Shown here: positions 10,779-40,264 of the stretch, piece after piece
Layout: the number at the start of each line of letters is the position of its first letter
Position numbering within the stretch: the first letter of the stretch is position 1
DNA from: a virus
Lineage: Duplodnaviria > Caudoviricetes
Reading direction: 5' to 3' (one strand)
IMG/VR virus record: IMGVR_UViG_3300012921_000060
Location: 1 to 40,264 of that record
DNA length: 40,264 nucleotides
Notes under the pieces: model-generated
What the model was told of the DNA's origin: nothing
Databases searched by the model: none
Seen by the model: only the letters and a program-made list of their open reading frames with translations
Program-made: the position numbers and the translations under genes

Positions 10779-11025
10779 GTTTTTCGCGCCCGACCGCATC
10801 GTGACGATCTGGCCCGACAACGATTTGCCGGGCATCGCGGCGGCCAAACGCATCGCGCATCTGTTGCTGGCATTGCGCGCGCGCGTGTTCGTTCGCTGGC
10901 CGCCGGCCGTGGCGCCGGTCGGCTGGGACGCGGCCGACGCGATCGGGGAAGGCTACGGCCCCGACCGGCTGCGCGATTTTCTTTCGTTGGCCGAGCCGTT
11001 CGAAAGCGAGGCGCCTCATGGATAA
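10771..11025 (+). CDS. Stand-alone C-terminal half of a TOPRIM-like domain
   Basis: VTIWPDNDLPGIAAAKRIA...P.GWDAADA pattern seen in phage primase-type TOPRIM domains. Confidence 0.6.
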   Translation: MAEFFAPDRIVTIWPDNDLPGIAAAKRIAHLLLALRARVFVRWPPAVAPVGWDAADAIGEGYGPDRLRDFLSLAEPFESEAPHG

Positions 11026-11713
11026 TCTCGAACGCGACCTGTTCGGCAACGTGCGCGAGCCCGAGGCGGCGCCGACGTTGGGCGTGCAGACCGGGCTAAC
11101 GCAGCCCGGCGCGAAGTCCGGGACCTGGCCCTTCGGCGATCTGGCGCCGTTCAAGTACGGCAAAATCGTCGCCGACCCGCCCTGGTGGTTCGATCTCTAT
11201 TCGAAGAAGGGCGAGGGCAAGAGCCCGCACGCGCACTACGCGCTGATGTCCGATGCCGATTTGTTGGCGCTGCCGGTCGGGCAGCTCGCCGGCCGCGATT
11301 GCGCTTTGTGGCTTTGGGCCACCAGCCCGCGTCTCGATTTCGCGCTGGCTGTCATGCGCGCCTGGGGTTTCGCGTTCGTCACGGCCGGCACCTGGCACAA
11401 GACGACGGTGCGTCGAAAGACCGCCTGGGGCACCGGCTACTGGATGCGCTCGGTCTCCGAGCATTTCTTGATCGGCAAGATCGGCTCGCCCCCGATCGAC
11501 ATGCGCTTTGCCGCGCGCACGCCCAATCTGTTTCGCGCGCGGCGACGCGAGCACAGCCGCAAGCCGCCCAACGCCCATCGCTACATGGACGGCATCCTGC
11601 CGAACGAATTCGGCTGCGAGCTTTTCGCGCGCCAATCCCGGCCGGGCTGGGACGCGTGGGGGAACGAAGCGACGAAGTTCGATCCGGCGCCCGCGCGAGC
11701 CGCGACGCCATGA
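11018..11713 (+). CDS. MT-A70-family N6-adenine methyltransferase
   Basis: IVADPPW catalytic motif, LWLWAT, WGF, HSRKP and ELFAR..RPGWDAWGNE. Confidence 0.92.
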   Translation: MDNLERDLFGNVREPEAAPTLGVQTGLTQPGAKSGTWPFGDLAPFKYGKIVADPPWWFDLYSKKGEGKSPHAHYALMSDADLLALPVGQLAGRDCALWLWATSPRLDFALAVMRAWGFAFVTAGTWHKTTVRRKTAWGTGYWMRSVSEHFLIGKIGSPPIDMRFAARTPNLFRARRREHSRKPPNAHRYMDGILPNEFGCELFARQSRPGWDAWGNEATKFDPAPARAATP

Positions 11714-37329: not shown

Positions 37330-37868
37330 GATACAGAATGCCCGACGGCACGATCGTGCGCGCGGACCGCGATTGGTCGTTCGACGACACGCAATATCCG
37401 GCGGGCGGCGCGTGGTCGCCGGCCGATTTCGGCGGCGTCGCGCTAGCCGATCCGCCCAACGTCGATCCGCGCGCGTTCGTCGTCGTCGAAACCGAGCCCG
37501 GAATCTACGAGACCAGCGCGCGGCCGTTGGCGGCGGTCAAAGCCGATCGGATCGCCGCGGCGGCGGCGTTGCGCTGGCAGACACAGACGGCCGGTATCGG
37601 CGGTTTCCGCACCGATCCCGAGAGCCAGTCGCTGCTGACTGGCGCAACGCTGCAGGCGATGCTCGACCCGGCCTATACGGTCGATTGGAAGACAAGCGCC
37701 GGTTGGGTGCAGCTCTCGGCCGCGCAGATCATCGCCGCAGCACAGGCCGTGCGCGCGCACGTGCAGGCGTGTTTCGACGCCGAGCGCGCGCACGCCCAGG
37801 CGATCGAAGCGCTTGCCACGGCCGAAAGCGTGCTGGCCTACGATATCGACAGCGGCTGGCCCGGATGA
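37326..37868 (+). CDS. DUF4376-like tail-fibre-associated protein
   Basis: TD.ESQ.LL.G, VDWKT..GWV.L, AVRAHVQACF.AE, GWP terminus. Confidence 0.78.
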   Translation: MRYRMPDGTIVRADRDWSFDDTQYPAGGAWSPADFGGVALADPPNVDPRAFVVVETEPGIYETSARPLAAVKADRIAAAAALRWQTQTAGIGGFRTDPESQSLLTGATLQAMLDPAYTVDWKTSAGWVQLSAAQIIAAAQAVRAHVQACFDAERAHAQAIEALATAESVLAYDIDSGWPG

Positions 37869-37905
37869 AAGCGCCCCGCATGACCGACTTTTCCGCCATC
37901 AAACG

Positions 37906-38011
37906 ACCGGCGGGGGATGCGCTGTTGGAGCAGCGCAAACCGCACGCGCGAACGTGCCCGACCACAACCGGCCGCATTCTGGCCGACCCGCCACCCCTGG
38001 CCTGGGGCGGG
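37906..38011 (+). ncRNA. Candidate structured RNA element upstream of com
   Basis: Hairpins TGCGCTG-TTGGAG-CAGCGCA and GCACG-CGCGAA-CGTGC inside a closing stem, followed by a CCCGCC/GGCGGG hairpin. Folded by eye only. Confidence 0.4.
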
Positions 38012-38031
38012 AGCAAGTGTAGGGTGATTCC

Positions 38032-38202
38032 GTGCGTTCCGACTATCGTTGTTCCTGCGGGCGGCTTCTGGCAAAAGCCAGCGGGCCGCTCGACGTCGAG
38101 ATCAAGTGCCCGCGCTGCGGCGCGCTCAACCGTTTCAAAATCGACAGGGCCGAGAGCCCGTCAAACCATGAACGCCGCCGCGCGTCTCTTGAAGGAGAAT
38201 AG
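38032..38202 (+). CDS. com: Com-family zinc-finger translational activator (56 aa, not in ORF track)
   Basis: MRSDYRCSCGRLLAKASGPLDVEIKCPRCGALN: RC.CGRLL...EIKCPRC...N signature at the Mu com position. Confidence 0.88.
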   Translation: MRSDYRCSCGRLLAKASGPLDVEIKCPRCGALNRFKIDRAESPSNHERRRASLEGE

Positions 38203-38211
38203 CGTGCATGG
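38143..38211 (+). promoter_or_regulatory. Candidate Com-responsive translation-inhibition structure
   Basis: CCATGAACGC (38166-38175) pairs 9/10 with GCGTGCATGG (38202-38211). Inner TCTCT/GGAGA stem covers the SD. Upstream GGGC-CGAGA-GCCC hairpin. Confidence 0.6.
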
Positions 38212-39085
38212 CGTGGCTCTATGTGCCGGTGCTGCCGGCCTTGAACTCGGACTCCACATTGCCGAACCAAACTACCGAACCGTCTGCTATGTCGAGCGCG
38301 ACGCGTTCGCGGTCGAAGTTCTCCAGGCGCGCATGCGCGACGGATCGATCGACGACGCGCCGATCTGGGACGACGTCAAAACTTTCGACGGACTGGCCTG
38401 GCGCGGAAAGGTGGATGTGCTCACTGCCGGATATCCGTGCCAGCCGTTCTCGTCGGCCGGCCACCGCAAGGGCGCGGCCGACCCGCGCCATCTGTGGCCC
38501 GCGATCGCCGGAATCGTCGCCGACATGCAGCCGCGCCGCGTCTTCGTCGAAAACGTGCGCGGCCATCTCTCCCTCGGTTTCGAGCGCGTCGTCGGCGACC
38601 TTCAGCAACTGGGTTTCCGCGTTGCAGCTACAGTCGTCGAGGGCGTCGAAGTCGGCGCGAGCCACGCGCGGGCGCGGGTTTTCGCTCTGGCCGACGCCGA
38701 CGGCGACGCGCAACGGCAATCACGTGTGGATGCAGATCGGCAAGCACGGCCTGCGCTTCGTGCCCATCCCCGACGCGTGGCAGACGATGAGCATCAGCGG
38801 CGCGGCGCTCGCGTGGTCGGTGCTGTGGGACGTGACGCAGGCGGCCGGCGGCGCCAGGCGTTCGCTCGTGTCGGCATCTTCCCGCCCGGTCCTGGCGAGC
38901 TTGTGGCCTGGGCGCGTTGGCTCGAACTACGGCCGGACGCTCAACCCACGCTTCCTCGAGGCCATGATGGGCTGGCCCGCTGGCTGGACCGATCCCGCAT
39001 TGCCGGTAACGGCGTTCTCAGCCTGGCTGCAGCGCATGCGTACCGCATGCTCGATGCTGCCTTGGCGGGAACGTGCGGAGATTGA
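38204..39085 (+). CDS. C5-cytosine DNA methyltransferase, alpha-like chain (motifs I-VIII, X)
   Basis: LCAGAAG (I), VERD (II), DDV (III), GYPCQPFS (IV), ENV (VI), H.R.RVF (VIII), AGNGV (X). GTG 38204 chosen; ATG 38168 is an alternative start. Confidence 0.9.
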   Translation: MHGVALCAGAAGLELGLHIAEPNYRTVCYVERDAFAVEVLQARMRDGSIDDAPIWDDVKTFDGLAWRGKVDVLTAGYPCQPFSSAGHRKGAADPRHLWPAIAGIVADMQPRRVFVENVRGHLSLGFERVVGDLQQLGFRVAATVVEGVEVGASHARARVFALADADGDAQRQSRVDADRQARPALRAHPRRVADDEHQRRGARVVGAVGRDAGGRRRQAFARVGIFPPGPGELVAWARWLELRPDAQPTLPRGHDGLARWLDRSRIAGNGVLSLAAAHAYRMLDAALAGTCGD

Positions 39086-39155
39086 AAACAGTTTGACTCG
39101 AAACAGCCAGAGGGCAAGAGTATTGAACGTGCAACCAAGAGGAACACAAACATGA
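38208..39155 (+). CDS. Overlapping +1-frame ORF: probable methyltransferase beta chain (motif IX-like)
   Basis: 315 aa with no stop; contains LWPTPTA and RTLNPRFLEAMMGWPAGWT; ATG shares the AAGGAG SD. Confidence 0.72.
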   Translation: MAWLYVPVLPALNSDSTLPNQTTEPSAMSSATRSRSKFSRRACATDRSTTRRSGTTSKLSTDWPGAERWMCSLPDIRASRSRRPATARARPTRAICGPRSPESSPTCSRAASSSKTCAAISPSVSSASSATFSNWVSALQLQSSRASKSARATRGRGFSLWPTPTATRNGNHVWMQIGKHGLRFVPIPDAWQTMSISGAALAWSVLWDVTQAAGGARRSLVSASSRPVLASLWPGRVGSNYGRTLNPRFLEAMMGWPAGWTDPALPVTAFSAWLQRMRTACSMLPWRERAEIENSLTRNSQRARVLNVQPRGTQT

Positions 39156-39676
39156 AGATATACGTTGCAGGGATTGTCGCTCTTCTGGCCTTCGTCGGGG
39201 GACATTCGTACGCGCAGCCTTTGTCGCTCGCGACGCCAAAGACGGAACGCCCGTTCATCGACGGATTGCAGGCGATCGAGGGTATCGCCGAGGTTGCGAC
39301 AGGCACTGCCCACGATGGCCGCATGTCCTATGTGGCGACGATCAAGGCACCGAGCGATATGACGCCGTCCGGCGTACTGATCGCGGTCTCGGGGCGGTTG
39401 TGGCAGGCTTTGCACGAAACGCCTGCGGCAGCGCGGCCCGCGATCGGCGCGTTGACCGTCAATATCGACGATCCCCAGGGCGTCCGCGCCTTGCGCTTTA
39501 CGGTGCTGGGAAGCGACCTCGACAAGATCGACGGTTCCCGCCCGGCCGACAGGCTGGACCTCTACCAGGCGGCGCGGGTCAATCCCACGGCGCTGAGCGC
39601 GGTCGGCCGGGTTTATCTGACGGCGTTCTGCACGGCCCCGCGCCGCAGCTGGTCTTTGTGCCGGACGGGCCTGTAA
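39152..39676 (+). CDS. Secreted/periplasmic hypothetical protein (moron-like)
   Basis: Signal peptide MKIYVAGIVALLAFVGGHSYA; GAGG SD; AT-richer upstream region with TTGACT (39093-39098). Confidence 0.72.
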   Translation: MKIYVAGIVALLAFVGGHSYAQPLSLATPKTERPFIDGLQAIEGIAEVATGTAHDGRMSYVATIKAPSDMTPSGVLIAVSGRLWQALHETPAAARPAIGALTVNIDDPQGVRALRFTVLGSDLDKIDGSRPADRLDLYQAARVNPTALSAVGRVYLTAFCTAPRRSWSLCRTGL

Positions 39677-39688
39677 CCGCGTCCAGCA

Positions 39689-39724
39689 GCGTTAGAGGCG
39701 CCGTTTTTCTGCTCCCTCTAACGC
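39689..39724. other. Inverted repeat between the last gene and attR
   Basis: GCGTTAGAGG (39689-39698) / CCTCTAACGC (39715-39724). Confidence 0.5.
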
Positions 39725-39731
39725 TTTTCCA

Positions 39732-39780
39732 GAATTTCAAACTGCCTGTCCCTGAATTTCAAACTGGGTGTCTCGCTACA
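39732..39780 (-). promoter_or_regulatory. attR transposase-binding sites
   Basis: Two tandem GAATTTCAAACTG..TGTC copies with a 22-bp period (39732, 39754), ending in CTACA. Confidence 0.88.
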
Positions 39781-39785
39781 GGGTC
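39781..39785 (+). repeat. Right 5-bp target-site duplication GGGTC
   Basis: Identical to 853-857 and immediately follows CA. Confidence 0.95.
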
Positions 39786-39970
39786 TCCCGGCCGGGTCGA
39801 ACTCTCTTCACTTGTCAAACAGCACCCGCCCCGGAGGGCGATGGCTGAAGTGAAGCATTTTGTTCGCTTTTGTGCAAGAGCGCTGTTATTTTACCTATCT
39901 CAGCTTATTACCTTGCATTTTGATTCGGTTTCGGCTATATATAGCTTCATGTTCAACTTCGGAGGTTGCC

Positions 39971-40264
39971 ATGCCCCTGTTCGAGTATGACGACGATTAC
40001 ACCGGCCTCGACAACGCGCCGGGCGCGTCGGACTGGTTCAAGCTCGACGATACGGTGGGCCTTGGCCGGGCCAATCGCCGCCACGACATGCTCAAAGTCG
40101 AAACCCTGCTGGCGAATGCGGGCGACCTGGACCTTTCGAAGGTCGGCGGGGCGATGGGCTACGGGCTCTACACGGTCGACGAGGCCGTGCGGAAATATCA
40201 GGGCCGCAACGGCCTCAAAGTGGATGGCTGGCTGCGCCCCGACGGCCCGACGATCGCCCTTTAG
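39971..40264 (+). CDS. Host peptidoglycan-binding-domain protein
   Basis: GGAGG SD; EAVRKYQGRNGLKVDG...PDGPT PG_binding_1-like motif. Lies outside the prophage. Confidence 0.7.
   Translation: MPLFEYDDDYTGLDNAPGASDWFKLDDTVGLGRANRRHDMLKVETLLANAGDLDLSKVGGAMGYGLYTVDEAVRKYQGRNGLKVDGWLRPDGPTIAL

Follow-up and report, generated by a model that had tools for sequence, protein, structure and literature searches.

The right end of a Mu-like prophage carries, directly behind a com gene, a methylase locus in which two almost completely overlapping reading frames probably encode a co-initiated two-chain DNA cytosine-5 methyltransferase in a Com-type operon. The second chain, beta, is read in the +1 frame of the catalytic chain, alpha, and this hidden frame seems to be preserved in a very large family of phage methylases. 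The window, i.e. the whole stretch of 40 264 nt that was analysed, contains the complete prophage together with its flanks.

Locus and prophage setting

The prophage is transposable and has TG...CA termini that are flanked by a GGGTC target-site duplication at 853–857 and 39781–39785. A scan of 33 ORFs against PHROGs yielded matches to a transposase, B protein, late activator, portal, head, sheath and baseplate. A relative that is identical to the window across the overlap (L184) lies on a 400-kb contig, and the prophage is therefore integrated. The com homologue is found directly 5′ of the methylase at the transposable phage's right end, which is the mom slot of Mu. The modification gene in this slot belongs to PF00145 and is not the GNAT-fold gene mom, so the replacement of mom suggested in an earlier note on this DNA holds for a complete Mu-like prophage. 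The main features are:

858–39780, plus strand: Mu-like prophage, defined by its ends, the duplication, end repeats and PHROGs genes
38032–38202, plus strand: com, zinc-ribbon translational activator (PF10122, E 7e-13; phrog_6417)
38204–39085, plus strand: alpha chain, 293 aa, GTG start, C5-methyltransferase large domain
38208–39155, plus strand: beta chain, 315 aa, ATG start, +1 frame of alpha
39152–39676, plus strand: 174-aa ORF, last gene of the prophage; its ATGA overlaps the beta stop at 39152–39155

The com stop ends 1 base upstream of the alpha GTG. Alpha and beta start 4 nt apart and overlap by 878 nt, as had been given exactly before together with the LWPTPTA at 38685 and the ATGA at 39152–39155; beta ends 70 nt beyond the end of alpha. 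The spacing from a single SD (AAGGAG, 38192–38197) is 6 nt to GTG 38204 and 10 nt to ATG 38208. No sigma-70-like site was found by a promoter scan of 37700–40264. The protein collection contains beta (38208–39155) exactly and lacks alpha from 38204, so the gene caller picked the +1 frame at this locus.

The ATGA overlap between the beta stop and the next gene is present in the window and is not kept in relatives: near relatives diverge from the window after 39045–39068, before the 174-aa ORF. Coupling of beta to this ORF as a kept feature was therefore rejected, and the ORF probably lies outside the methylase system. In relatives beta usually ends 15–31 codons past motif X, compared to 49 in the window. 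The 174-aa ORF has a hydrophobic N-terminus; beyond it lie a perfect inverted repeat of 11 bp and two end repeats (39688–39725). Elsewhere in the window a second DNA methyltransferase is located at 11018–11713 (phrog_359, E 2.5e-62), just 5′ of the late activator gene.

The +1 frame is open in nearly all relatives compared

Judged from the window alone, the open +1 frame could be an artefact, caused either by assembly indels or by a chance open frame in GC-rich DNA. The probability of the open frame was 0.07 in within-gene synonymous shuffles and 0.05 upon recoding with the codon usage of the prophage, and +1 open runs reach 205 codons in ordinary genes of the same prophage; as evidence for the +1 frame, the single window sequence is only suggestive. 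We fetched 183 relatives with patterns for alpha only, which together with the window gave 184 sequences. From these 31 were left out before counting: 6 truncated at the end of a contig, 6 duplicates, and 19 in which motif I or X could not be recognised, some of the latter with an alpha that ends after motif VIII. The remaining 153 loci (window included) are full-length and non-identical; they are kin and not independent events, and clustering leaves 77 representatives below 80% identity.

The +1 frame was stop-free from motif I to motif X in 151 of the 153 loci versus 42.6 expected from synonymous shuffles, and over all loci only 2 stops were observed where 266 were expected from within-gene synonymous shuffles. 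The +2 frame was open in none of them. Over the first 150 codons past motif I all 153 loci were free of +1 stops, and the GC content of the open relatives ranges from 49 to 73%. Among 34 metagenome loci examined 17 were incomplete; all 17 complete ones, one of which likely repeats L014, have an open +1 frame. Furthermore, no net indel was seen in the gene of three contigs from other studies whose identity to the window is ∼90–92%. The open +1 frame across relatives is far beyond chance and, as had been anticipated, is no indel artefact; at the level of the family the artefact reading is refuted by the 151 and 17 open loci, and for the window we consider its probability negligible.

Seven of 12 cultured phages were open in +1 across the gene. 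In one further phage the +1 frame is open for 445 codons and contains a motif IX-like segment, and four actinophage genes carry +1 stops; the methylase family thus exists in other layouts too, as these four genes indicate. All 12 records annotate one CDS at the locus and none annotates both frames. The cultured phages include the P22-like Salmonella phage S9-5 (L221:1438–2230), in which the gene has two frames and the +1 ORF is unannotated; a gene similar to it occurs in 4 of 5426 E. coli genomes. The Gordonia phages CheeseTouch and JKSyngboy (L225:1129–2163 and L229:1132–2196) show a different layout: frame 0 contains the motif IX-like segment, and PTP modules lie in a +1 frame that is open for ∼260 codons and does not begin with an ATG. 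Seven further sequences (L012, L019, L020, L038, L156, L164 and L166), split variants or else broken genes, have an alpha that ends early without motif X; past this early end the +1 frame of L012 and L019 continues with PTP modules and a motif IX-like segment.

Frame-specific selection

In 35 Com-linked relatives sequence identity is higher in alpha at motifs I–VIII and higher in beta at alpha codons 167–226, while codons 242–282 show similar identity in both frames. Alpha V41 is encoded by GTG in all 35 relatives (beta W), and alpha R43 by CGG in 27 and AGG in 8 of them (beta G in 35/35). Judging from these codons, synonymous sites of alpha are locked at some positions where beta is invariant among the Com-linked relatives.

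Selection in the lineage of the window itself was analyzed with two contigs that are ∼92% identical to it, using 40 of 41 difference rows. At alpha codons 163–225 the changed beta codons were silent in 8/11 and 6/9 cases, whereas the changed alpha codons were silent in only 1/11 and 2/10. Of 19 changes in this middle zone, 12 are at third positions of beta codons (p 0.007, with some changes common to both contigs), and not one creates a stop. The pattern of substitutions indicates that the +1 frame is under purifying selection in the middle zone, and the frame-specific selection that had been proposed as a check on homologues is found in this region. The alternation of the informative frame proposed before, 0, +1, 0, is not that simple, since codons 242–282 are conserved in both frames.

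For the first half of beta the picture differs. A SWRGW..RPW motif in this half is kept by the Com-linked relatives but lost in the window, and the closest alpha relatives of the window differ at the SWRGW position too. This loss counts against an important role of the beta first half in the window lineage, where it may be little more than a leader.

Domain content of the two chains

Alpha contains motif I at 38219, IV (PCQ) at 38429, VI (ENV) at 38543, VIII at 38654 and X (GNGV) at 39005, i.e. motifs I–VIII and X of a C5 methyltransferase including the catalytic PC and ENV. The PF00145 match is restricted to residues 3–164 (E 7e-29). Residues 167–225 are 25% Arg, and this segment appears as a shadow of beta, in agreement with the Arg-rich, shadow-like stretch described before. 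AlphaFold modelled alpha with high pLDDT for the catalytic core (residues 1–165) and the motif X helix (263–292) and with values below 50 at 186–204, 206–220 and 252–265; Foldseek aligned the model with M.HhaI at E 3e-13 across 171 columns. In a C5 methyltransferase, motif VIII and motif X of one chain are separated by a variable region and motif IX. Alpha does not have them: this segment is absent and disordered in alpha, and the homologous segment is on beta. Motif X is invariant in frame 0 of the relatives.

Beta is Ser/Thr-rich in residues 1–155 (22% Ser, 10% Thr), followed by LWPTPTA and a motif IX-like segment, as had been noticed from the sequence. Two features were assigned to its second half:

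38685–38933, plus strand: likely target-recognition region on beta, opening with a WPTPT module (Rita gp76 profile match; beta-frame selection)
38934–38990, plus strand: motif IX-like segment on beta, LNP.F.E.MMGWP.GWT (RTLNPRF...PAGWT), from profile comparisons

The label ‘motif IX’ rests on the position before motif X in Rita gp76 and on a pattern that we take to be that of motif IX. Likewise, the PTPT of beta may correspond to the ‘TL’ motif of target-recognition domains (TRDs). Mycobacteriophage Rita gp76 is a single chain with PTP repeats, L.P.F.E.MMGWP.GW and motif X all in frame 0. The alpha profile matches its residues 1–160 (E 5e-45), and the beta profile its residues 195–352 (probability 97.4, E 1e-11). 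The target of C5 methylases is recognised by a variable region located between motifs VIII and IX, and this region forms the small domain together with motif IX (PMC3404938, as far as this source was covered). Since the variable region and motif IX of Rita gp76 match beta, beta likely represents the small domain, bearing both motif IX and the region for target recognition.

Searches with single beta sequences were less informative. A comparison of each frame with the methylase family had been recommended: alpha matches PF00145, but beta alone gave no match in Pfam, PDB sequences, Foldseek PDB or a tblastn of phage records. The beta model alone folds poorly (pLDDT 62, pTM 0.29), and a word-indexed search with beta residues 155–290 gave 1 match among 152 candidates. 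Phrog_1008, on the other hand, is matched by the window beta and by 78 of 78 aligned betas, and with a cutoff of E 1e-10 the beta profile matches 27 558 clusters, some of which may be mere shadow frames of alpha.

Tandem W/L-x-T-P modules, from three to five or more in number, occur in the betas of L007, L010, L019, L224, L226 and P0003, which suggests that these enzymes are multi-specific. In Rita gp76 (L219:1438–2607) the +1 frame is open from codon 54 to 208 and contains two PTP modules; this stretch may be left over from an ancestor with two frames.

Two other readings of these chains were considered. Alpha could be a complete enzyme of relaxed specificity and the +1 protein a separate accessory or regulator. 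Relaxed-specificity methylases do occupy the mom slot elsewhere (described in PMC3299994, a source covered in part), and beta is without a fold match; nevertheless, the second half of beta is homologous to the VIII–X segment of a single-chain enzyme and alpha has no ordered small domain, which makes this reading very unlikely. Alternatively, a programmed +1 frameshift near motif VIII could join alpha 1–∼160 to beta ∼160–315 in one protein, full-length alpha being a by-product or a donor of motif X. The existence of single-chain relatives and the long open +1 remnant with PTP modules in Rita gp76 indicate that frame switches near motif VIII have occurred in evolution. A frameshift leaves the stop-free first half, the kept beta start and the invariant motif X in frame 0 unexplained, and we regard it as slightly more improbable still than the accessory reading. 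We therefore favour two chains: beta is very likely a real, translated protein, and we have considerable confidence that alpha and beta together form the enzyme.

Paired start codons

The head of the +1 frame carries a conserved element:

38208–38228, plus strand: beta start motif M-x-W-L-Y-x-P, kept in 140/153 loci

This W-L-Y-like motif lies 2 to 24 codons before alpha motif I, and in all 140 loci a start codon is found immediately, or one codon, before the W. In 88 of them, the window included, the alpha start is 4 nt 5′ of the beta ATG. In 48 others beta starts with an A/G/TTG that is immediately followed by TGG, which gives rise to an alpha GTG 2 nt downstream, and these are the sole codon types at that position; the last 4 have a beta ATG and no alpha start at −4. 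The alphas of P0004 and P0005 start at the same residue as the window alpha, and their residues 2–3 (YG and NG) fit the same +1 ATG. The two starts beneath a shared SD, proposed for the window, are thus a kept arrangement across relatives, from which we infer that both chains are initiated jointly under one SD.

Initiation of beta at an internal codon, with its first half untranslated in this prophage, was weighed as well. The window beta has ATGs at codons 28 and 70, it has lost SWRGW, and the beta of M.EcoHK31I is able to use internal Met codons (reported in PMC2836561, covered in part). Three observations oppose internal initiation: the 150 codons past motif I that are stop-free in every locus, the W-L-Y-x-P motif that shifts relative to motif I yet retains its start codon, and the fit of P0004 and P0005 to the same +1 ATG. 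An internal start is quite unlikely from this comparison; beta is likely initiated at 38208.

Com and its putative RNA site

Of the 153 loci, 44 have a com-like gene on their 5′ side, 42 of them recognised by pattern and the other 2 with a profile made from these 42, so the Com-linked form is a minority of the very large two-frame phage family. Late or structural phage genes lie 5′ of 22 of the 27 Com-linked loci scanned, a Mu-like nature being established for not all of them. The site bound by Com is described as CC(N)2–3GAG in a hairpin loop closed by C–G (PMC6483171, covered in part). Two predicted RNA structures precede the methylase:

38147–38159, plus strand: predicted Com-binding hairpin with a 4-bp stem and a 5-nt loop, CC(N)2–3GAG at 38150–38156
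38185–38198, plus strand: short predicted hairpin over the shared SD, candidate translation-inhibition structure; weak (z −1.09 for 101 nt, −2.06 for 48 nt)

The predicted Com hairpin with its intact motif is closed by C–G and lies ∼45 nt upstream of the start. A second, start-proximal copy of the motif at about 38174–38183 has GCG where GAG is expected. Within 75 nt of the start CC(N)2–3GAG occurs in 34/38 Com-linked representatives versus 3/40 others, with ∼7.8 expected in each group, although the motif is within the com coding region and protein conservation and kinship inflate its count. In the 4-bp consensus hairpin one pair is changed on both sides in 21 of 36 rows. Com-linked loci showed no stronger folding around the SD than the remaining loci did (p 0.43).

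These findings also bear on the possibility that the two-chain enzyme is real but Com control has been lost, the chains being translationally coupled to the com stop. The com stop 1 base before the alpha GTG, the degenerate proximal motif and the weak SD hairpin would all fit such a loss, but the intact motif in the C–G-closed hairpin and a window com that retains its four cysteines argue against it. We consider loss of Com control unlikely, though it is the most serious of the alternatives, and Com control of the methylase in this prophage likely.

In a tree built by a quick method the window groups with P0004 and P0005 (97); on this tree the Com label needs 5–7 changes, from which nothing is concluded about origins, since at least two of the rows labelled ‘non’ turned out to be Com-positive. 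The com frame, a third frame, extends 8–46 nt beyond the first methylase start in 23 of 36 Com-linked representatives, so three frames are in use at once (e.g. L003, L024, L025, L037, L108). In L004, L024, L035, L059, L092, L093 and L047 the com–methylase cassette stands behind a phrog_52 tail gene, a terminase–portal pair or an integrase; from this gene order, the cassette may not be confined to Mu-like phages.

Proposed model and implications

In the reading we prefer, ribosomes at the one SD would choose either GTG 38204 or ATG 38208. Alpha would contribute SAM binding and catalysis (motifs I–VIII and X) with its shadow segment looped out, beta would contribute the small domain, i.e. target recognition and motif IX, and the two chains would assemble into a single DNA cytosine-5 methyltransferase. 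Binding of Com to the hairpin at 38147–38159 would free the SD, so that one switch would release both chains. Switched on late, the enzyme may protect progeny DNA from restriction and thus have an anti-restriction role. A broader version is put forward more tentatively, at somewhat less than even chances: one Com-gated SD with starts 2–4 nt apart that would release both halves of the enzyme together, a hidden chain with exchangeable recognition modules, and a beta first half that, although encoded across the best-conserved catalytic motifs of alpha, would be a functional domain of its own. Elements that can be named in this half are W-L-Y-x-P, SWRGW and a helix at 129–149.

Long same-strand overlaps in which both frames are selected are rare, and they are seemingly the rule in this very large phage family. 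If the hidden-frame reading is true, thousands of phage methylases that are annotated as one protein are two-chain enzymes whose specificity resides in an unannotated frame. Were the recognition region to lie in that hidden frame, half of the enzyme would be missed by expression tests and by predictions of specificity that start from the annotated frame alone. Furthermore, the Com-linked form makes two questions testable, namely how ribosomes select one of two starts that share an SD and are 2–4 nt apart, and how the proportion of two subunits is set by a single RNA switch.

Comparison with known systems

Both a frame-nested subunit and a methylase in the mom slot are already known and have published precedent. 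M.EcoHK31I is described as an alpha/beta C5 methyltransferase that recognises YGGCCR (PMC2836561, PMC3404938, both covered in part); its beta, which activity requires, is encoded within the alpha gene in another frame, a precedent for chains working in trans (PMC2836561). The analogy drawn in the earlier note applies insofar as two chains are encoded by different frames of a single stretch of DNA, alpha having motifs I–VIII plus X and the motif IX-like segment being on a chain in the other frame. It does not extend to the placement of the TRD and the nesting of beta. In the published descriptions, as far as covered, the TRD of M.EcoHK31I is assigned to alpha and its beta is smaller and nested wholly in alpha, whereas at the window locus the TRD is likely on beta, given the Rita gp76 profile match, and beta (315 aa) is as long, starts 4 nt later and outruns alpha. 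Also, M.EcoHK31I is a restriction–modification enzyme while the window gene is an orphan behind com. In M.AquI, another natural two-chain C5 enzyme, motif IX is on the second chain along with some of the variable region (PMC3404938); this second chain is described as holding motif X too, in a plain N/C split, in contrast to the window, where motif X is on alpha and the overlap is nearly complete.

The arrangement resembles com–mom of Mu as far as that system is described in the portions covered: com at the right end of a transposable phage is followed by a DNA-modification gene, with a Com-type RNA motif upstream. Replacement of mom by methylases has been described for B3 ORF48 and for FluMu Hin1523, Hia5 and Nma1821 (PMC3299994, PMC6483171, covered in part). 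These described replacements are single-frame adenine methylases, while that of the window would be a two-frame cytosine-5 enzyme; one switch would therefore have to release two starts.

In a partial coverage of the literature, with REBASE outside it, we found no report of a phage family with the two-frame layout or of Com with a two-frame C5 enzyme. The portions covered of PMC5537653, PMC6536676 and PMC3925955 deal with m5C methylases of alphaproteobacterial prophages and do not mention a second frame. The actinophage methylase family has been studied for insertions (PMC11855218), where the portion covered discusses an out-of-frame HNH insertion and not a second methylase chain. Actinophage methylases of the Rita gp76 type (OP068340) share the homologous catalytic domain, the PTP modules and the motif IX-like segment with the window locus but, unlike it, have all parts in one frame. 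Both frames of the window gene are already database families, phrog_363 for alpha and phrog_1008 for beta, and both are labelled DNA methyltransferase.
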